DNA of 20,713 nucleotides, taken from IMG/VR virus record IMGVR_UViG_2537562021_000003, positions 1 through 20,713 of that record; one strand, 5' to 3'. Position numbers and translations under genes: made by a program. The notes beneath the pieces were generated by a model. That model searched no databases and was not told the origin of the DNA. It was given only the letters and a program-made list of their open reading frames with translations. Shown here in pieces: positions 157 to 20,713 of the stretch (its first letter is position 1; each line of letters begins with the position of its first letter). The DNA is from a virus. Taxonomy: Duplodnaviria > Heunggongvirae > Uroviricota > Caudoviricetes.

Positions 157-1170
157 TTACGGTTGGCTGTTTTTAACATTCAAAAGAAAGTTCTTCCAAA
201 TTATTAGCAGTGAATTTTTATCTAAATCAATCTTATGAGGTTTGATGTTTTTTCCTTCATATATATTTTTATAATAGCAATCGATAGCAAAATGAATAGT
301 TAAATTATCTGGATGTATGGCTAGTAGACCTCGGTCAAGCAAGGCATGAAGGGTAGGTTCAAGAGGTATTCCATTGTTGGTTCTATGGTTTTGGGTCTGA
401 GAAAATGGTTCAAGGTGACATGCCTGCAATACTGGGAGGTTGTAACCTGTTATTGCGCATACATTTGAGAAGTTTTTTAGAACCCTTTTTTTAAAGTCAA
501 CCTGTTCGCCAGAGTCACGCTGTAATACTGTTTGCAGATGAGTATTGCCTTTTGTGACAACTGGTATACTAATTGTATCAGAGGGATTTATAAATATGAC
601 TGGCGGTAGAGTAGGTTCTAGAATGTTTTTTTGTCCAAGAAACTGCCTTGATAATAATTCATCTTTAGCGATTTTTATTGCTTCACTTTTTGTTAATGAA
701 AGGCATGCCAGATTATACGCATCTACATTGAAATATTTAGTTTCCCTGTTTAGCGTAATGGATGATATTTTTTTATCGTGTTCTGCTATTGGTATACCTT
801 TTGTGACAGGATGCGAAATGCTTTCAAGCAGTGTTGTATTGCCATTTATTTCTTTATTAAACAATGAGGTAGGGTGTTCAATCATATTGCTATGCTTGGC
901 GCGATAGTGCTCATATAGGCCATGAGCACTTTTGAAATTTTTCTTGCATATTATACAGCTAACATTTCCCCCATTAATTTTTTTTGAATTTCTTTTTCTG
1001 GATTCAACAAGAGAGTTTGTTAGATCTTCTCTTAGTTTTAATATTCTGAGGTTGGTTGGGTTGTTTCCTCGTCTATATGGTAAGCTCTCAAGTCTATTTA
1101 ACTCATTTTTGAGGTGTTGGTACTGTTTACGTGAAATTAAATTAGGTTTCATATTTAAGATTAAGATCAC
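157..1170 (-). CDS. Cargo protein with N-terminal C2H2-like zinc finger and C-terminal HNH-like nuclease motif (candidate exclusion/defence nuclease)
   Basis: 337-aa ORF, visibly AT-rich compared with the backbone. CIICKKNFKSAHGLYEHYRAKH has C-x2-C-x12-H-x4-H spacing. The C-terminus CAITG...LQACHLEPF...NNGIPLEPTLHALLDRGLLAI resembles the HNH_2-type motif as I recall it. Start is GTG at 1170 or ATG at 1152; no clear SD. Confidence 0.6.
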   Translation of the reverse strand: MILILNMKPNLISRKQYQHLKNELNRLESLPYRRGNNPTNLRILKLREDLTNSLVESRKRNSKKINGGNVSCIICKKNFKSAHGLYEHYRAKHSNMIEHPTSLFNKEINGNTTLLESISHPVTKGIPIAEHDKKISSITLNRETKYFNVDAYNLACLSLTKSEAIKIAKDELLSRQFLGQKNILEPTLPPVIFINPSDTISIPVVTKGNTHLQTVLQRDSGEQVDFKKRVLKNFSNVCAITGYNLPVLQACHLEPFSQTQNHRTNNGIPLEPTLHALLDRGLLAIHPDNLTIHFAIDCYYKNIYEGKNIKPHKIDLDKNSLLIIWKNFLLNVKNSQP

Positions 1171-2225: not shown

Positions 2226-2858
2226 TCAAAGGCTCTTAATGATTTTCAGTGCGCGGCCTACTACCTCAATGTCATCCAGACCGCACTCAAACGATGAATC
2301 ATCCTGATGCACTACTAATTTGTTTCCCGGGAGTCGAGTCAATTTAACGATGCTTTTTATCCCGTCGATATCGACTAACCACATACCATTTACTGGTGGT
2401 GTTTGGTTGCGATCTATTAAATAAGAATCACCAGAAGTAGTCACCAGCAGTAGGTTGCTTGAGTCTGAGGGGAGTATGCTGCTATCAATGATTGCTTTTC
2501 CAGCATCGACCAATAAACCACCGTTGAGAGTCGCCTTGTCAATTTCAGGAGATACTAGTTCAGAAAGAGGTACAACCTTGCTGGAGTTCACGGAATTGAT
2601 ATTTTTTTTAGGTTCAATGTTTGGACCTGGCTCCCCCTGTCCGGTGGTTAGCCACAGTAAAGAAACTCCTGTTTCCAAGGCGCACTGAATCACCCACTCT
2701 GCAGGAAAACTATCTCTTAAGTATCTGTTTGCCATGGTGCTTTTTGATGCGCCTAAGTGATCGCAAAGTTGCTGTCTGGACTTGAAATCATAGGCTGCCA
2801 TTAGTCTATGGATAGCCTCTCTTCCCCCTGTATTCTCTCCAACCTTTACCTGTATCAT
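2226..2858 (-). CDS. cI: 186-type CI immunity repressor
   Basis: 210 aa; N-terminal AYDFKSRQQLCDHLGASKSTMANRYLRD...CALETGVSLLWLTTGQGE looks like the CI-repressor HTH. Divergent from the pR operon and directly upstream of int. Confidence 0.75.
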   Translation of the reverse strand: MIQVKVGENTGGREAIHRLMAAYDFKSRQQLCDHLGASKSTMANRYLRDSFPAEWVIQCALETGVSLLWLTTGQGEPGPNIEPKKNINSVNSSKVVPLSELVSPEIDKATLNGGLLVDAGKAIIDSSILPSDSSNLLLVTTSGDSYLIDRNQTPPVNGMWLVDIDGIKSIVKLTRLPGNKLVVHQDDSSFECGLDDIEVVGRALKIIKSL

Positions 2859-2870
2859 TTTTTAATCCTA

Positions 2871-2899
2871 TTGACGTATCAAATATTGGATCGTAGTAT
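2871..2899 (+). promoter_or_regulatory. pR-like sigma70 promoter for the early lytic operon
   Basis: TTGACG (2871..2876), 17-bp spacer, TAGTAT (2894..2899), about 80 bp upstream of the first + strand gene. Confidence 0.55.
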
Positions 2900-2977: not shown

Positions 2978-3220
2978 ATGAGCACTGATATTTCAATTCG
3001 TGTACCAAAAGAGATGGCTACGCCTGCAGAGTTCGCGGAATGGGAAGGTATCTCCCGCGGCTCCGTGTATCAAAAAATTCACCATGGTCAGCTTGCTAAA
3101 TACATGGTCAAGAAAGAAAAAAACAAAGGCCGCGTAAGCCTGCGTTATTTAATGTACAAAACCGATCAGGTCCGTGAATCCCTCGGTCATTCCAACTTCC
3201 GCGTCATTGTTGGTAAGTAA
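2978..3220 (+). CDS. apl: Apl/Cox-like excisionase-regulator (first gene of the pR operon)
   Basis: 80-aa basic protein at the apl/cox position; SD GGGAGA at 2963..2968. Call is positional. Confidence 0.5.
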   Translation: MSTDISIRVPKEMATPAEFAEWEGISRGSVYQKIHHGQLAKYMVKKEKNKGRVSLRYLMYKTDQVRESLGHSNFRVIVGK

Positions 3221-4342: not shown

Positions 4343-4576
4343 ATGCGTAATATTGAAACCCTCTCGACTAAAACCGGACCGGATGACGCAGGGCTTAATA
4401 TTTTACTGACAGAGGCTCGTCTGGAAGAACGCCGGGCAAGGGCTGAAGCAATGGCAGCTCGCCTTGATAGCCTGGCGTGTCATATAACATCCCGCCAGCT
4501 AAACCACGTCGAAGCGGCAGAACTGCTGCGTGTGAATGCTGAAGCAATCCAGAACGAAGCGCAGGAGATCCACTGA
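4343..4576 (+). CDS. Hypothetical early protein
   Basis: ATG at 4343 with SD GGAGA at 4331..4335; the track's 79-aa ORF starts at an upstream TTG; its stop overlaps the next start (TGATG). Confidence 0.5.
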   Translation: MRNIETLSTKTGPDDAGLNILLTEARLEERRARAEAMAARLDSLACHITSRQLNHVEAAELLRVNAEAIQNEAQEIH

Positions 4577-4803
4577 TGGCTGATGCAATGGATCTCGTAC
4601 AGCAGCGCGTTGAAGAAGAACGCCAGCGTCATATCCGTGCTGCCCGCGCCAAAACGCCGGGCGTGTCCCGCGTGCTTTGCGTTGAGTGTGAAGCGCCAAT
4701 TCCGCCAGCACGCCGCCGTGCCATTCCGGGGGTGCAGCTTTGCATTACCTGTCAGGAAATCGCAGAGCTGAAAGGCAAACATTACAACGGAGGTGCTGTA
4801 TGA
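4576..4803 (+). CDS. TraR/DksA-family C4 zinc-finger protein
   Basis: 75 aa with CVEC...17 aa...CITC; SD AGGAG at 4563..4567. Confidence 0.7.
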   Translation: MADAMDLVQQRVEEERQRHIRAARAKTPGVSRVLCVECEAPIPPARRRAIPGVQLCITCQEIAELKGKHYNGGAV

Positions 4804-5657
4804 GCACCATCCTGAAATGGGCGGGAAATAAAACCGCCATTATGTCCGAACTGAAAAAACACCTTCCTGCTGGCCCGCGACTGGTTGAACCTTTCGCGGG
4901 TTCCTGTGCTGTGATGATGGAGACGGATTACCCCAGCTATCTGGTTGCGGATATTAATCCTGATTTAATCAACCTCTATAAAAAGGTTGCTGCTGATTGT
5001 GAATCGTTTATATCTCGCGCTAGAGTTTTATTTGAGATCGCAAACAGGGAGGTGGCTTATTACAACATAAGGCAGGAGTTTAATTACTCCACTGAAATTA
5101 CTGATTTCATGAAAGCGGTATATTTCCTGTATCTCAATCGTCACGGTTACCGTGGTTTATGTCGCTATAACAAGAGCGGGCATTTCAACATTCCCTACGG
5201 TAATTATAAAAATCCGTATTTCCCTGAAAAAGAAATTCGCGCATTTGCAGAAAAGGCCCAGCGAGCAACGTTTATCTGCGCCAGCTTTGATGAAACGCTG
5301 GCGATCTTGAAGGCGGGGGATGTGGTGTATTGCGATCCGCCGTATGACGGTACGTTTTCCGGCTATCACACTGATGGTTTCACTGAAGATGACCAGTATC
5401 ACCTGGCATCTGTTCTTGAACATCGGTCATCAGAAGGACATCCGGTCATTGTTTCTAACAGTGACACATCCCTGATCCGTTCGCTGTATCGCAATTTTAC
5501 TCACCACTACATCAAGGCAAAACGCAGCATCGGTGTGGCAGCTGGCGAGGGTAAATCAGCAACAGAAATCATTGCTGTTTCCGGGCCGCGCTGCTGGGTG
5601 GGATTTGATTATTCGCGTGGCGTGGATAGTTCTGCCGTGTACGGAGTACGTGCATGA
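4800..5657 (+). CDS. dam: DNA adenine methyltransferase (Dam-like, orphan)
   Basis: [17 protein letters not shown] and the DPPY motif in [11 protein letters not shown] at 4800 with SD GGAGGTG; ATGA overlaps with the neighbours on both sides. The track's longer ORF starts at 4740. Confidence 0.85.
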
Positions 5658-8068
5658 GCCATGCCGATATGAACAACTGCTGCGGCTTTAACGAGGCTGC
5701 CGCATCGTTCTCATGGAACAGCCCGAAAAAGGCCATTAACCCTTATCTGGACCCGGCGGAAGTTGCGCCGGTTTCTGCGCTTTCAAACCTGATCACTCTG
5801 TACGCTGCCGATAACGAGCAGGAACAGCTGCGCCGCGAGGCACTGAGTGATCAGGTCTGGGAGCGTTATTTCTTTAATGAATCCCGTGATCCTGTCCAGC
5901 GCGAAATGGAGCAGGATAAGCTCATTAGTCGGGCAAAGCTGGCGCATGAGCAGCAGCGTTTTAATCCAGATATGGTCATTCTGGCGGACGTCAATGCCCA
6001 GCCTTCCCATATCAGCAAGCCGCTGATGCAACGTATTGAATACTTCAGCAGCCTGGGCAGGCCAAAGGCTTATTCCCGCTATTTGCGTGAGACGATTAAG
6101 CCATGTCTGGAACGACTGGAGCATGTACGCGACAGTCAGCTATCCGCTTCTTTTCGCTTTATGGCAAGCCATGAAGGGCTGGATGGCCTGCTTATCCTGC
6201 CTGAAATGAGTCAGGATCAGGTGAAGCGCCTGTCTACCCTTGTCGCTGCGCATATGAGCATGTGCCTTGATGCAGCTTGTGGTGATTTGTATGCCACCGA
6301 TGACGTTAAGCCAGAAGAAATCCGCAAGACATGGGAAAAGGTGGCAGCGGAAACCCTGCGTCTGGATGTTATCCCGCCTGCGTTTGAGCAACTCCGTCGG
6401 AAAAGAAACCGCCGTAAACCCGTGCCCTATGAACTCATTCCGGGTTCGCTGGCGCGTATGTTGTGCGCTGACTGGTGGTACCGGAAATTATGGAAGATGC
6501 GTTGCGAATGGCGGGAAGAGCAGTTGCGCGCTGTCTGCCTGGTCAGCAAAAAAGCATCTCCTTATGTCAGCTATGAAGCCGTGATGCATAAACGTGAGCA
6601 GCGCCGTAAGTCGCTGGAGTTTTTCCGTTCTCATGAACTGGTGAACGAAGACGGCGACACGCTGGACATGGAGGATGTGGTAAACGCCAGCAGCAGCAAC
6701 CCTGCGCATCGCCGCAATGAGATGATGGCCTGTGTTAAAGGTCTGGAACTTATCGCGGAAATGCGCGGTGACTGCGCCGTTTTCTACACCATCACCTGTC
6801 CGTCACGTTTCCATTCCACGCTAAATAACGGCAGACCCAACCCGAACTGGACAAATGCGACGGTAAGACAAAGCAGTGATTATTTGGTCGGCATGTTTGC
6901 TGCATTTCGTAAGGCGATGCACAAAGCCGGATTGCGCTGGTATGGCGTGCGGGTGGCTGAGCCGCATCATGACGGTACAGTTCACTGGCACCTGTTGTGT
7001 TTTATGCGCAAAAAAGACCGCCGCGCCATCACTGCATTACTGCGTAAGTTTGCCATCCGTGAAGACCGCGAGGAGCTGGGCAATAACACGGGGCCGCGCT
7101 TTAAGTCTGAGTTGATTAACCCGCGCAAAGGAACGCCGACAAGCTACATCGCGAAATATATCAGTAAGAACATTGACGGGCGTGGTCTGGCTGGCGAGAT
7201 CAGCAAGGAAACGGGTAAATCCCTGCGTGATAACGCTGAATACGTGAATGCCTGGGCGTCTCTGCATCGTGTTCAGCAATTCCGCTTCTTTGGCATTCCG
7301 GGGCGTCAGGCTTACCGTGAACTGCGATTGCTGGCTGGTCAGGCGGCAAGGCAACAGGGTGACAAAAAAGCAGGTGCGCCGGTACTGGATAACCCGCGCC
7401 TTGATGCAATCCTGGCTGCTGCTGATGCTGGTTGTTTTGCCACCTACATCATGAAGCAGGGCGGCGTACTGGTTCCCCGTAAATATCACCTCATCAGAAC
7501 TGCTTATGAAATCAACGAAGAGCCGACCGCCTATGGCGATCACGGCATTCGTATTTATGGCATCTGGTCACCTATTGCAGAGGGCAAGATCTGCACTCAT
7601 GCCGTGAAGTGGAAAATGGTTCGTAAGGCCGTTGACGTTCAGGAGGCGGCAGCCGACCAGGGCGCTTGCGCCCCTTGGACTCGTGGCAATAACTGTCCCC
7701 TTGCTGAAAATTTGAACCAACAGGAGAAAGATAAATCAGCTGATGGGGACCCCAGAACGGACTTTACCCGCATGGATGACAAGGAGTTGCACGATTACCT
7801 GCACAGTATGAACAAAAAGGAGCGCCGGGAACTGGCTGCAAGGTTACGTCTGGTGAAACCGAAACGGCGTAGAGACTACAAACAGCGAATTACAGACCAT
7901 CAACGACAGCAGCTCGTCTATGAACTGAAATCCAGAGGATTTGATGGCAGCGAGAAAGAGGTCGATTTACTCCTTCGCGGCGGCAGTATTCCGTCAGGAG
8001 CAGGCCTGCGTATCTTCTATCGGAACCAGCGTTTGCAGGAAGATGATAAGTGGCGGAACCTGTATTAA
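5654..8068 (+). CDS. A: Replication initiation endonuclease, P2 gene A / 186 RepA family
   Basis: 804 aa; [22 protein letters not shown] and YIAKYISK match the HUH/tyrosine rolling-circle signatures of gpA. Confidence 0.85.
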
Positions 8069-8707: not shown

Positions 8708-8741
8708 GAGGCGATGTCAATCAGATATCGCCTTGTTTTTT
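8708..8741 (+). terminator. Candidate intrinsic terminator after the DinI-like gene
   Basis: Stem AGGCGAT (8709..8715) / ATCGCCT (8727..8733) then TTGTTTTTT; the loop is long (11 nt), so weak. Confidence 0.4.
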
Positions 8742-8767
8742 GTCAAGAAAAGAATAATAGGCTAAAA

Positions 8768-9445
8768 ATGAAAATTAATAATGTAGCGTTACCAATATCT
8801 CTTGCTGTAATCCTAACTGGTTGCGTGCCACATGCTTCTAACCGAAATATCACTGCTATTGAAGTGGTGAAGCCTGCTATTGGGCAAAGTGCTACCGCCT
8901 ACATGGGCGATCCCATTATCACATCTGCTACTGGATTTAAAACGGACGTACTAGAACTTGGTGCGGCTAATGGTGCATTGTCTTCTATCGCTGCTGGTAC
9001 ATATTGCAGTGAGGGGAATGGAATTTACCGCAATTATCATAACCCTCAAGCTGTTGCGTTAAAAAATCTCTATGGGCAAATCGGTAACTATGTTGATTAT
9101 GTTAGTTACGATGCTGCAAAAAATGAGATATCACCGCCAAATGGTACTTCTTATACTGCATCAGAAATTTCTATCAAACGTGTTCCTGATGGGCTGTGTC
9201 GAGTTAGTAACTCATTGGTTAAGACTATCGAATACAATGGAAATGCAGGCGGTGTAATGAAGTTCACCTATCGTGAATTTGCAAACGATATGGCTCGTGC
9301 AGCATTTACAACAGATTTTTCTGTAGATTCTAAGGGAAGTGACGTTATCGCTTACAAAGGTGCCAAGTTCAAAGTGAACAAGGCTGATAACTCGTCTATT
9401 TCTTATACAATTATTTCTGGCTTTGACAAGGCTGTCACGTTCTAG
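8768..9445 (+). CDS. Lipoprotein of unknown function (cargo)
   Basis: MKINNVALPISLAVILTGC is a signal peptide with lipobox LTGC; AT-rich codon usage. The track's upstream start at 8714 lies inside the terminator hairpin. Confidence 0.65.
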   Translation: MKINNVALPISLAVILTGCVPHASNRNITAIEVVKPAIGQSATAYMGDPIITSATGFKTDVLELGAANGALSSIAAGTYCSEGNGIYRNYHNPQAVALKNLYGQIGNYVDYVSYDAAKNEISPPNGTSYTASEISIKRVPDGLCRVSNSLVKTIEYNGNAGGVMKFTYREFANDMARAAFTTDFSVDSKGSDVIAYKGAKFKVNKADNSSISYTIISGFDKAVTF

Positions 9446-9548
9446 GTTTCACGCTTACTGAGTATGTTACGATTTTGCACATTCTGCATAAACGCGCATG
9501 TCTATGCTGCATGAGATCGCATGATCGTTTGAGGATCTTTTGTGTTAA

Positions 9549-9574
9549 GGCCCGCCAGTTCTGGCGGGCTTTTG
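9549..9574 (+). terminator. Intrinsic terminator downstream of the lipoprotein gene
   Basis: GCCCGCCAG / CTGGCGGGC 9-bp inverted repeat followed by TTTT. Confidence 0.6.
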
Positions 9575-9618
9575 CGTAGATCATGCAGGTGCATGAAAAC
9601 CACTACATAAAGCGGGCA

Positions 9619-9637
9619 GGCGTGGCGGGGATACGAG
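9619..9637. other. cos-like packaging site (P2/186-type cohesive-end sequence)
   Basis: GGCGTGGCGGGGATACGAG: the first 13 nt match the 186 cohesive end as I recall it (GGCGTGGCGGGGAAAGCAT). GC-rich patch between accessory genes and the portal gene. Confidence 0.45.
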
Positions 9638-9864
9638 CGCGCGCCGCGGGTTGAAATAGTAAAATTCACTTAGCCTCAGGCCCGCTGATGGTTTTCTTCT
9701 GAAAGGGAGGGCGCGTTTTTGTGCAATCTTGTTTGAAGGGATTTAAATAAATGTTGAATGTGTTCCGGAGTTGGCTGTAGATTTAGTGTTCTGCCACAAG
9801 TTGCAGTGATAGGTAGCAAACCTTTAAAAGGTTCTGCTATTGTTTCATTAAAGATTTATAGTCT

Positions 9865-10464
9865 TTGTCCGAAAATGACATTAAAGTAGTCGCCTTTAAT
9901 GTCGTAAGCATGAAGGACAGAGAATTGAACTTAGAGCAGATTGCCAGTCAAAGTATAAGTAACCTTCAGTTTCTCCTCGATACTTTGAAGATGCCGTTGG
10001 CTGTTGGTCCAATCAGTGATGAAGACTATGTGATCCTGACCACAGGATACGCTCAGCTAGAATGGGATTATGGTTTTTCTCGGTTTGGCAATCGAAGTGA
10101 TAAGTTTGAATTTTGTTTGAAGCTCCTTGCGGGGCCACTTAGGCATATCCCTTCTGGCGCAGCTATGTGCACCTTTGACGAGGACGCTGGAGTCATAGAG
10201 ATCCATTTTGTGGAATCTTTTGTGAAAGATGATGACGTAGAGCACCCTCTTTACGGCAACATGTTCATGGTTACATTGTGGGCGGTATATCTTTTTGGTA
10301 GCGCGGTTGGGTGTCAAGAGATTCGGATCCCTGAAGCCCTGAATCAAAAAGTTGCTGACCACTATAAAAAATTTGGTTTTAAAGGTGATATAAGCTTGCT
10401 TTCGGCACCTTTTGCTACAATAACTGATGTAGTAAGACGCTACATTACTTCTAAGAAACAGTAG
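9865..10464 (+). CDS. Hypothetical cargo protein; C-terminus possibly GNAT-like
   Basis: 199-aa ORF from TTG 9865 (or 184 aa from ATG 9910); no strong SD for either. IRIPEALNQKVADHYKKFGF resembles GNAT motif B; no clear motif A. Confidence 0.5.
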   Translation: MSENDIKVVAFNVVSMKDRELNLEQIASQSISNLQFLLDTLKMPLAVGPISDEDYVILTTGYAQLEWDYGFSRFGNRSDKFEFCLKLLAGPLRHIPSGAAMCTFDEDAGVIEIHFVESFVKDDDVEHPLYGNMFMVTLWAVYLFGSAVGCQEIRIPEALNQKVADHYKKFGFKGDISLLSAPFATITDVVRRYITSKKQ

Positions 10465-10474
10465 ATAAATTTTT

Positions 10475-10496
10475 GCGCAGTGCTACAATGCTGCGC
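10475..10496 (+). promoter_or_regulatory. Extended -10 promoter (TGCTACAAT) inside a 6-bp-arm inverted repeat
   Basis: GCGCAG (10475..10480), TGCTACAATG, CTGCGC (10491..10496), about 50 nt upstream of the 59-aa ORF. Confidence 0.45.
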
Positions 10497-10543
10497 CAAA
10501 CATCCACCACCGGATGATGAGGCTTGACCTCTAAGAGGAAATC

Positions 10544-10723
10544 ATGACTATGACGCATAGTGACAAGAAAGCTCAGAAGCATTACTCAGTATCTGATGTT
10601 TTCAGCCGTATGGGCGTCGCGATGGAAGAACTACTTCAAGCGGCCCCACATATGATGCAGGACTGCAAATTTGAAGGAAATGAGCTGCATGGTAAGCTCA
10701 AAGAAAAGCAGAAAGCTGCTTAA
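10544..10723 (+). CDS. Small hypothetical protein (59 aa), not in the ORF track
   Basis: My own translation: MTMTHSDKKAQKHYSVSDVFSRMGVAMEELLQAAPHMMQDCKFEGNELHGKLKEKQKAA. SD AAGAGGA at 10533..10539; terminator follows. Confidence 0.5.
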   Translation: MTMTHSDKKAQKHYSVSDVFSRMGVAMEELLQAAPHMMQDCKFEGNELHGKLKEKQKAA

Positions 10724-13000: not shown

Positions 13001-13256
13001 AAGGAAAATCTGGTTACGCCCGGTTACCGGAGAAGTGCAGGCCGTGGAGCTTGTGGTGCGTGGACGTCACAAAGAAGTGGATTCCGGCGAGTGGAAGACG
13101 GGCGAAAGCAACACCACCAAAGTGACCAGTACCAACAGCTACGCGAAGCTGACCATCAATGGTGAGGTGCTCTATGAAGTGGACCTTATCAACATGGTGG
13201 AAATTGTGGACGGTGTGGACCTGATGGAAGCGCACCGCAACGCCCTCGGCCTCTGA
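12987..13256 (+). pseudogene. Tail tube (gpFII) C-terminal fragment
   Basis: ...TGEVQAVELVVRGRHKEVDSGEWKTGE...INGEVLYEVDLINMVEIVDGVDLMEAHRNALGL resembles the FII C-terminus; in-frame stop at 12984..12986 and no N-terminal half. Confidence 0.55.
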
Positions 13257-18690: not shown

Positions 18691-18714
18691 AACCTGCTAC
18701 GGCAGGGTTTTATT
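18691..18714. terminator. Hairpin between convergent ogr and the WYL/BRCT-like gene
   Basis: CCTGC TACG GCAGG followed by TTTTATT on the + strand. Confidence 0.45.
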
Positions 18715-19192
18715 CATCTGGGATCTCACCCGTTTCAAGAAAATGTATAAAGCCAGGCTCATCTATGATGATTGTGCCTTTCATCCTGGCTGCCGATACT
18801 TTTGATGGGCCTGCATTGTAACCGCAACAGAGCATCTGAAGGCTTTGGGTTACAGAGGTTCTTACCGTTAATCCTTGTTCATTCGCCTTATCAACCAATC
18901 TTTCTTTATCTGCTTTCTTAAATCCGGTGAAGCACACATCGAATGTATTTTTTTTCGGACCAGACTGCTTAGTGAGATGTGAGTAGTTTTCGGGGAGGAA
19001 TGACGCGCATTCCTGAATGGCTTGTTCTGGTGAATCGTACTGTTTAAGAATGCGGTCTTTTCGGAAGGTTTTTATTCGATCGGTGTTCTTACAAATGCCC
19101 TGTATATGATTTTCGCTATAACTGATGCTCTGTATAGAGTGAACAGCGATACGACCATTTGCATTGATGTAAACAAAGTGAAGTTCTTCCAT
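18710..19192 (-). CDS. Cargo protein with WYL-like N-terminal motif and BRCT-like C-terminal domain
   Basis: 160 aa with SD AAGAGG 6 nt upstream. CFTGF...GLTVRTSV...GPSKVSAARMKGTIIIDEPGFIHFL parallels the LigA BRCT domain as I recall it; N-terminal G-x-C...RIKTFRKDRI resembles the WYL-domain end signature. Confidence 0.6.
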   Translation of the reverse strand: MEELHFVYINANGRIAVHSIQSISYSENHIQGICKNTDRIKTFRKDRILKQYDSPEQAIQECASFLPENYSHLTKQSGPKKNTFDVCFTGFKKADKERLVDKANEQGLTVRTSVTQSLQMLCCGYNAGPSKVSAARMKGTIIIDEPGFIHFLETGEIPDE

Positions 19193-19315
19193 GTGAAACC
19201 TCTTTGCATGATTTCAAGATGGCGACAGGCAAGATGGACGAAAAAGTCTGTCGCCATTTTGCCGCCACTACCAAAGAAAAAGGGGCTACGCTTTCACGTA
19301 ACCCCTTGATTTATT

Positions 19316-19360
19316 TGGTGGAGCTGGCGGGAGTTGAACCCGCGTCCGAAATTCCTACAT
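19316..19360 (-). other. Attachment-site core: 3'-terminal 45 nt of ssrA (tmRNA), not a complete gene
   Basis: TGGTGGAGCTGGCGGGAGTTGAACCCGCGTCCGAAATTCCTACAT is the reverse complement of the E. coli tmRNA 3' end (recalled); the match stops at 19361 where AT-rich phage sequence begins. Confidence 0.75.
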
Positions 19361-19486
19361 ACTATTTTTAATACAATGAAAACAGTAGTTTGCGTTTAAA
19401 AACAGTGTGTTACTATTATCCTGTGTTTATCCGTTTTACGCATTTTTAATGCTCTGCCGCCAAGTTGTCGCCAATTTTAGGCTAAC

Positions 19487-20500
19487 TTACGGTTGGCTGT
19501 TTTTAACATTCAAAAGAAAGTTCTTCCAAATTATTAGCAGTGAATTTTTATCTAAATCAATCTTATGAGGTTTGATGTTTTTTCCTTCATATATATTTTT
19601 ATAATAGCAATCGATAGCAAAATGAATAGTTAAATTATCTGGATGTATGGCTAGTAGACCTCGGTCAAGCAAGGCATGAAGGGTAGGTTCAAGAGGTATT
19701 CCATTGTTGGTTCTATGGTTTTGGGTCTGAGAAAATGGTTCAAGGTGACATGCCTGCAATACTGGGAGGTTGTAACCTGTTATTGCGCATACATTTGAGA
19801 AGTTTTTTAGAACCCTTTTTTTAAAGTCAACCTGTTCGCCAGAGTCACGCTGTAATACTGTTTGCAGATGAGTATTGCCTTTTGTGACAACTGGTATACT
19901 AATTGTATCAGAGGGATTTATAAATATGACTGGCGGTAGAGTAGGTTCTAGAATGTTTTTTTGTCCAAGAAACTGCCTTGATAATAATTCATCTTTAGCG
20001 ATTTTTATTGCTTCACTTTTTGTTAATGAAAGGCATGCCAGATTATACGCATCTACATTGAAATATTTAGTTTCCCTGTTTAGCGTAATGGATGATATTT
20101 TTTTATCGTGTTCTGCTATTGGTATACCTTTTGTGACAGGATGCGAAATGCTTTCAAGCAGTGTTGTATTGCCATTTATTTCTTTATTAAACAATGAGGT
20201 AGGGTGTTCAATCATATTGCTATGCTTGGCGCGATAGTGCTCATATAGGCCATGAGCACTTTTGAAATTTTTCTTGCATATTATACAGCTAACATTTCCC
20301 CCATTAATTTTTTTTGAATTTCTTTTTCTGGATTCAACAAGAGAGTTTGTTAGATCTTCTCTTAGTTTTAATATTCTGAGGTTGGTTGGGTTGTTTCCTC
20401 GTCTATATGGTAAGCTCTCAAGTCTATTTAACTCATTTTTGAGGTGTTGGTACTGTTTACGTGAAATTAAATTAGGTTTCATATTTAAGATTAAGATCAC
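19487..20500 (-). CDS. Second copy of the zinc-finger/HNH-like nuclease gene
   Basis: Identical 337-aa translation to 157..1170. Confidence 0.6.
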   Translation of the reverse strand: MILILNMKPNLISRKQYQHLKNELNRLESLPYRRGNNPTNLRILKLREDLTNSLVESRKRNSKKINGGNVSCIICKKNFKSAHGLYEHYRAKHSNMIEHPTSLFNKEINGNTTLLESISHPVTKGIPIAEHDKKISSITLNRETKYFNVDAYNLACLSLTKSEAIKIAKDELLSRQFLGQKNILEPTLPPVIFINPSDTISIPVVTKGNTHLQTVLQRDSGEQVDFKKRVLKNFSNVCAITGYNLPVLQACHLEPFSQTQNHRTNNGIPLEPTLHALLDRGLLAIHPDNLTIHFAIDCYYKNIYEGKNIKPHKIDLDKNSLLIIWKNFLLNVKNSQP

Positions 20501-20522
20501 TTTTGTGTACTTACATTATAAG

Positions 20523-20713
20523 TTACATGTTATTCGACAAGTATATAAAGTTCAAAGGGTTTTTCGTTACTGCATCTTCCAGATGGTCTGGAGAAAAATG
20601 GGCGTAAATCATCGTCATTTTTATATCGGCATGGCCCAAAATATCGCGCAGTACCAGTATGTTTCCGCCGTTCATCATGAAATGGCTGGCGAATGTATGG
20701 CGTAGAACGTGGG
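20523..20713 (-). CDS. int: Integrase, C-terminal part of a second copy (truncated by window end)
   Basis: Identical to 1193..1383, encoding the catalytic C-terminus. Confidence 0.8.
   Translation of the reverse strand, partial: HVLRHTFASHFMMNGGNILVLRDILGHADIKMTMIYAHFSPDHLEDAVTKNPLNFIYLSNNM

Follow-up and report, generated by a model that had tools for sequence, protein, structure and literature searches.

The window, that is, the entire 20,713-nucleotide stretch of DNA analyzed here, contains a gene, dam, for an orphan DNA adenine methyltransferase. Its reading frame, on the + strand, opens with ATG at 4800, closes with TGA at 5655–5657 and encodes 285 amino acids. The longest ORF at this position starts with TTG 4740, but this start is a mechanical artefact of the ORF listing, and ATG 4800 is preferred because it is preceded by the sequence GGAGG at 4789–4793 and agrees with both the RefSeq CDS (WP_001415209.1) and the alignment with the N-terminus of the E. 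coli Dam protein (hereinafter EcoDam). The gene shares an ATGA start/stop overlap with each of its neighbors, which bears out the original prediction that it belongs to the early operon, with a zinc-finger gene on one side and gene A on the other. The upstream overlap is retained in 79 of 80 related IMG/VR loci (one has a TTG start codon), and the ATGA at the junction of dam and gene A, in the context GCATGA, is present in 79 of the 79 loci tallied. The features of the gene and its immediate surroundings are the following:

4576..4803, + strand, gene for a TraR/DksA-type C4 zinc-finger protein, the upstream neighbor (PF01258, 4.4e-11; TIGR02419, 1.5e-18)
4789–4793, + strand, ribosome-binding site GGAGG, 6 nt before the dam start, identified in the sequence
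4800..5657, + strand, dam, 285-aa orphan Dam-family (D12 class, alpha-type motif order) N6-adenine DNA methyltransferase, identified by profiles, structures, PADLOC and RefSeq
4800–4803, + strand, ATGA start/stop overlap of the zinc-finger gene and dam, identified in the sequence
4887..4913, + strand, motif I region EPFAGSCAV (residues 30–38), AdoMet-binding, FxGxG-type, identified by translation and mapping onto EcoDam
5139..5207, + strand, target-recognition hairpin region (residues 114–136), identified by alignment to EcoDam
5334..5345, + strand, catalytic motif IV, DPPY (residues 179–182), aligned with EcoDam D181–Y184
5654–5657, + strand, ATGA overlap of the dam stop and the gene A start, identified in the sequence
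5654..8068, + strand, gene A, P2/186-type replication initiator endonuclease, the downstream neighbor (PF05840 Phage_GPA, 5.3e-128; RefSeq "replication endonuclease")

The dam product matches the complete Pfam profile PF02086 (positions 1–253 of 253; 257.6 bits against a cutoff of 22, 1.9e-76) and the TIGR00571 "dam" profile (319.9 bits against a cutoff of 114.85, 1.5e-95), and the RefSeq product name is DNA adenine methylase. The score obtained with NF008152, the NCBIfam equivalog for the enterobacterial housekeeping Dam, is 287.2 bits, under the cutoff of 441, so the phage enzyme is a Dam-family paralog and not an ortholog of the housekeeping Dam. The best PADLOC match is the orphan-methyltransferase model PDLC03729 (6.5e-111). 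Among proteins with solved structures, the top relative is EcoDam (PDB 2G1P/4GOL; E=4e-73, residues 4–263), with 47.3% identity across 258 aligned residues, followed, in this sequence-level comparison, by DpnM (2DPM, 1.2e-33) and T4 Dam (1YFJ, E=4e-18). DpnM and T4 Dam are both GATC methylases. On the strength of the two profiles and the 47% identity to EcoDam, the previously proposed assignment to the Dam-type adenine methyltransferases is upheld.

Both sequence motifs on which that assignment had been based, DPPY and EPFAGSCAV, are found by translation at residues 179–182 and 30–38, respectively. In the alignment to EcoDam, the order of the elements is motif I, hairpin, motif IV, i.e., alpha-type. 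Within motif I, F32-A-G34-S-C36 aligns with F35-V-G-A-G39 of EcoDam, so that the second glycine is replaced by cysteine; T4 Dam also lacks the second glycine of this motif, hence this residue is not strictly required. The residues of EcoDam responsible for recognition of the GATC base pairs, intercalation at the central A:T and catalysis are K9, Y119, L122, R124, P134, Y138 and D181-PPY184 (PMC4417163). The first six of these are all conserved in the phage protein, as K6, Y117, L120, R122, P132 and Y136, and so is the catalytic DPPY. The substitutions relative to EcoDam include G39 by C36, N120 by R118 and R137 by N135. In addition, the loop that follows DPPY is 5 residues shorter, and the protein is extended at its C-terminus by a tail of about 22 residues that is covered by P2-like relatives only. 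Given the three substitutions and the shorter loop, the flanking-sequence preference, processivity and even the specificity of the phage enzyme could differ from those of EcoDam. From the residue-level comparison as a whole, we infer that the phage Dam is enzymatically active and is probably specific for GATC.

Comparison of copies of dam is compatible with a functional gene. The 79 IMG/VR copies compared are full-length and ungapped, without internal stops; in a set of 58 alleles, pairwise dN/dS has a median of 0.099, the 20 key residues show no variation, and the motifs EPFAGSCAV and DPPY are invariant. Thus, dam is subject to purifying selection. The protein sequence encoded in the window is identical to those on at least 13 other IMG/VR contigs, the nucleotide sequence is 2–3 nt away from the nearest alleles on other contigs, and this copy can be read as a presumably working gene. 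At a nucleotide identity of at least 90%, dam is present in 1239 of 5426 complete E. coli genomes (~23%); copies with 97–98.5% nucleotide identity are found in isolated phages of Klebsiella, Escherichia and Salmonella; and the 90%-identity protein cluster includes 4038 members. The gene is an already known, common accessory gene of enterobacterial P2-like prophages.

The genes apl, cII, fil, DUF5347, DUF2732, TraR, dam and A follow one another on the same strand with tight spacing, in an order that is identical in the intact phage Cartapus and, from apl to A, corresponds to the annotated pR early lytic operon of phage 186. Upstream of this array are two features relevant for its control:

2226..2858, − strand, gene for the CI immunity repressor, intact, with both domains (PF07022, 5.4e-31; PF16452, 5.6e-28; RefSeq "phage repressor protein CI")
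2871..2899, + strand, pR-like promoter TTGACG-17-TAGTAT, detected by a consensus scan at a position matching that of pR in phage 186; its function is putative

Two 17-bp direct repeats (GTATCAAATATTGRATC), at 2876–2892 and 2906–2922, lie on either side of the −10 element of this promoter and probably serve as operators. A GATC (2889) is contained in the first repeat; the second one reads GAATC at this point. An intact CI is expected to keep the early operon, dam included, off in the lysogen. No promoter-like site on the + strand was found between pR and dam by a crude consensus scan that could miss a weak internal promoter. Thus, dam lies downstream of pR, facing an intact CI gene, with no + strand promoter detected in between, and its expression is most likely confined to infection or induction. 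If so, an effect on the GATC-dependent regulation of the host, which had been proposed as a possible role of the gene, is unlikely in a stable lysogen. The same scan was considered for signals that might uncouple dam from pR; it gave only a weak terminator-like site within the zinc-finger gene (4661–4673) and one promoter-like match on the antisense strand (5230–5203), with the total number of matches under the shuffle expectation, and such uncoupling was rejected.

Comparison of phage 186 (locus L082, 3891–5748) with the loci L088, L117, L126, L147, L154 and L161 identifies the TraR/gene A junction as a variable slot that is empty in several loci, contains dam in the Fels-2/Cartapus type, and is occupied in L147 by different ORFs (92 and 276 aa). 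Where relatives lack dam, the zinc-finger gene directly abuts gene A. Because the slot is empty or carries other cargo in the relatives, dam is accessory cargo of the early operon.

There is no gene for a cognate nuclease beside dam, the adjacent genes being those for the zinc-finger protein and gene A, and this arrangement, together with the match to the PADLOC orphan model, agrees with the description of the enzyme as an orphan that lacks an adjacent restriction endonuclease. The sole nuclease-like cargo in the element is located 3.6 kb from dam:

157..1170, − strand, gene for an HNH_2 (PF13391) protein of 331–337 aa, flanked by the attachment site and the integrase gene

The HNH_2 protein shows weak PADLOC matches to HNH and type II restriction models, and was considered as a hidden partner nuclease. 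This candidate is rejected: the gene is present in 4 of the 5426 complete E. coli genomes vs 1239 for dam, which indicates that the two are not co-inherited, and it lies on the opposite strand, 3.6 kb away and beside the attachment site. The element contains 59 GATC sites vs about 75 expected from base composition; this mild under-representation is unremarkable, so there is no strong signal for or against restriction evasion.

Bases 1–1383 of the window are duplicated exactly at 19331–20713, so the window represents a 19,330-bp unit written out as a circle, plus the overlap. It is 100% identical to the chromosome of E. coli WS4437A-1 (NZ_CP035822.1), where the unit is flanked by a perfect 46-bp direct repeat, TTGGTGGAGCTGGCGGGAGTTGAACCCGCGTCCGAAATTCCTACAT, that takes in the 3' end of ssrA; the prophage is therefore integrated at the tmRNA gene. 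In the window, the repeat is represented by the following feature:

19315–19360, att copy, part of the 46-bp direct repeat

A second integrase gene and ParB-like genes are located directly past attL in WS4437A-1, which suggests a tandem island at ssrA. A scan of the whole window against Rfam yielded no match.

The prophage is P2/186-like and encodes an integrase, the CI repressor, Apl/Cox, CII, Fil, DUF5347, DUF2732, the TraR/DksA zinc-finger protein, the DNA adenine methylase, the replication endonuclease A, a DinI-like protein, portal, tape measure, gpU, gpD and Ogr. Alignment with phage Cartapus reveals one clean junction, where window positions 13024|13025 correspond to Cartapus positions 3114|17128. 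Relative to Cartapus, 14.0 kb are lost, with one breakpoint within the gene for the large terminase and the other within that for the tail tube, both of which are annotated as partial in RefSeq; the deleted late genes include those for the capsid, small terminase, lysis, baseplate, tail fiber and sheath. The remnant retains the cos site, the genes for portal, tape measure, gpU and gpD, ogr, int, cI and the replication genes; excision and replication might still be possible, and packaging by a helper is conceivable in principle. At least 80% of the window is covered in 2 of the 5426 complete E. coli genomes, the source and one other. The single clean deletion, this narrow distribution and the 2–3 nt that separate dam from other copies together make the remnant look young. 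The prophage is thus defective, as originally stated, but its apparently recent deletion implies that the presence of dam in the remnant is no evidence of selection in the host or of domestication, so that retention in a defective prophage carries no such meaning.

The remnant carries several further cargo genes. The segment 8714–10723 holds cargo of the variable cos region, which has gene A/DinI on one side and the portal gene on the other. Before cos, it contains a lipoprotein-like ORF of 226–243 aa (8714/8768..9445) with an LTGC lipobox-like signal, and after cos, ORFs of about 184–199 aa and 59 aa; none of the ORFs in 8714–10723 has a match in Pfam or PADLOC. The region around cos is a defense hotspot of P2 (bioRxiv 10.1101/2021.01.21.427644) and, according to PMC7826664, retron Ec67 occupies this cos-side site in its own prophage. 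Between ogr and the attachment site, there is a 160-aa ORF (18710–19192, − strand) that shows weak similarity to BRCT (E=1e-3) and also matches the C-terminus of the PADLOC candidate PDC-S48 (1.7e-7); its counterpart in Cartapus (22813..23295, − strand) is annotated as "putative exonuclease protein".

A cluster of GATC sites adjoins the cos site, the core of which is at this position:

~9607–9631, cos core, CATAAAGCGGGCAGGCGTGGCGGGG

Four GATC sites (9515, 9523, 9534 and 9579) are found within 75 bp to the left of the cos core, flanking a terminator hairpin at 9548–9575, and three of the four overlap copies of a repeated GCATG motif. Among related loci, a GATC-N5-9-GATC pair is present at this position in 19 of the 20 with a Dam gene vs 4 of the 13 without one (Fisher p = 1.6e-4, uncorrected for shared ancestry), and phage 186, which has no dam, contains no GATC at this position. 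By analogy with the Dam-methylated pac site of P1, the phage Dam might gate a methylation-sensitive step at the cos end, but this appears quite unlikely. The close dam-less relative L088 retains the pair, so the association may reflect lineage history alone, and we know of no methylation-dependent step in P2-like phages.

Taken together, these observations are best compatible, with a probability of roughly 85%, with a gene for an active, GATC-specific orphan Dam that is carried as variable-slot cargo, transcribed from pR, and methylates replicating phage DNA. The phages that host this slot cargo would be P2-like phages of the Fels-2/phiR67/Cartapus type. Transcription of dam would be driven by pR along with the rest of the early lytic operon, and the ATGA overlaps would chain its translation to that of the preceding gene and of gene A, so that Dam and the replication initiator would be co-produced once infection or induction has occurred, but would not be made in the repressed lysogen. 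The bacterial host, E. coli, encodes a Dam itself; the phage enzyme might provide for full GATC methylation of fast-replicating phage DNA when the host Dam lags. Full methylation, in turn, would shield the progeny DNA from nucleases that cut unmethylated GATC and would avoid the effects of hemimethylation, namely SeqA binding and MutH nicking. We infer both the timing of expression and this biological role of the phage Dam. Dam homologs are common in phages, and their role is often unclear (PMC7556043, PMC12707154); the best understood case is phage P1, which encodes a Dam itself and depends for packaging on the methylation of GATC at pac, and T4 Dam blocks restriction in vitro (both PMC12707154, PMC7556043).

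It is unlikely that the dam ORF serves mainly as a translational coupler that feeds ribosomes to gene A, with the enzymatic activity being secondary. Coupling itself is plausible, given that the overlap with gene A is kept in all related loci examined and that, according to the phage 186 record, translation of A apparently needs translation to proceed to the end of the upstream orf84. However, coupling alone would maintain neither a dN/dS of about 0.1 nor the invariance of the catalytic and DNA-reading residues and, in dam-less relatives, the zinc-finger gene itself abuts A, so that any upstream ORF can couple. The 186 record also places a terminator, tM1, early in A, and here a hairpin followed by a T-rich run is found at a similar position (5753–5771), but its predicted fold is no better than that of shuffled sequence (z = −0.61), so a tM1-like terminator is unsupported. 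Adenine methylation that is relaxed or directed at targets other than GATC, as in a broad anti-restriction methylase, is very unlikely. The replacements R118 and N135 and the shortened loop after DPPY leave room for such an activity, and some prophage adenine methylases are non-specific, e.g., M.EcoGII (PMC5778455, PMC12707154). Against this stand the conservation of six out of six EcoDam residues involved in GATC recognition and intercalation and the 47% overall identity to this enzyme. M.EcoGII, besides, belongs to a different family from this Dam.

It is highly improbable that dam is on in the lysogen and reprograms the GATC-dependent regulation of the host, in a form of lysogenic conversion. 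The gene is part of the pR operon, opposite the intact CI gene, with no promoter-like site on the + strand before it, although a weak internal promoter could escape the consensus scan; moreover, the host Dam already methylates nearly all GATC sites. In enterobacteria, phase-variable and prophage genes are under the control of Dam methylation (PMC7380047), a point in favor of such reprogramming, but other prophage methylases are silent in lysogens (PMC12707154). Highly improbable, too, is the possibility that dam is a decaying, inactive passenger of a dead prophage. The loss of 14 kb of late genes does imply that selection for phage functions may have ended in this lineage, but the deletion looks recent, with the window covered to at least 80% in two genomes only; the ORF is full-length, differs from other copies by 2–3 nt and specifies a protein that is also found on at least 13 other contigs; and the catalytic, cofactor-binding and DNA-reading residues are all intact. 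Thus, an active, GATC-specific Dam expressed from pR remains the preferred reading.

Beyond the correct annotation, the significance of this copy is small because the gene is routine and has already been annotated as DNA adenine methylase. It is a general open question why a temperate phage whose host is Dam-positive encodes a Dam of its own (PMC7556043, PMC12707154). A deletion remnant is a poor experimental system for this purpose, and intact relatives, e.g., Cartapus or RE2010, are better suited.

Among the known systems, one of the closest counterparts is the Dam methylase of retron Ec67, with which this family was first reported, in 1990 (Hsu, Inouye & Inouye, PNAS 87:9454), in a 34-kb element that, according to PMC7826664, was later recognized as the 186-related prophage phiR67. 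The Ec67 enzyme is likewise 285 aa long and shares a 90%-identity cluster with the protein described here, one member of this cluster being named "retron EC67 DNA adenine methylase"; the host elements are similar as well, both being 186-related prophages, of about 34 kb if intact (PMC7826664). The TraR/DksA–dam–replication endonuclease neighborhood also occurs in a Klebsiella Fels-2-like prophage (PMC7826664). Unlike in the Ec67 element, the present copy resides in a 19.3-kb deletion remnant at ssrA that lacks the retron and carries other cargo in the cos hotspot. The Dam genes of Cartapus, Salmonella phage RE2010 and the Klebsiella phages KP12 and 4LV2017 show 97–98.5% nucleotide identity over the whole gene, but these phages keep the full late region, 14 kb of which are missing in the window. 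EcoDam shares with the phage enzyme the fold family, motif order, and the GATC-contacting and catalytic residues, and differs in that the enzyme described here is phage-borne and encoded in a repressor-controlled operon. Dam/Dmt of P1 and Dam of T4 are, like this protein, orphan phage enzymes of the D12 class (36% identity to the P7/P1-type Dmt), and both target GATC, but they are distant in sequence and encoded in a different genomic context. Finally, the position of dam between the DksA-like zinc-finger gene and A corresponds to that of the non-essential orf81–orf84 of phage 186, the last of which similarly overlaps the start of A, whereas the proteins encoded in that slot are unrelated (exonuclease-subunit-like, DUF5405 and PAPS-reductase-like) and phage 186 itself has no dam.
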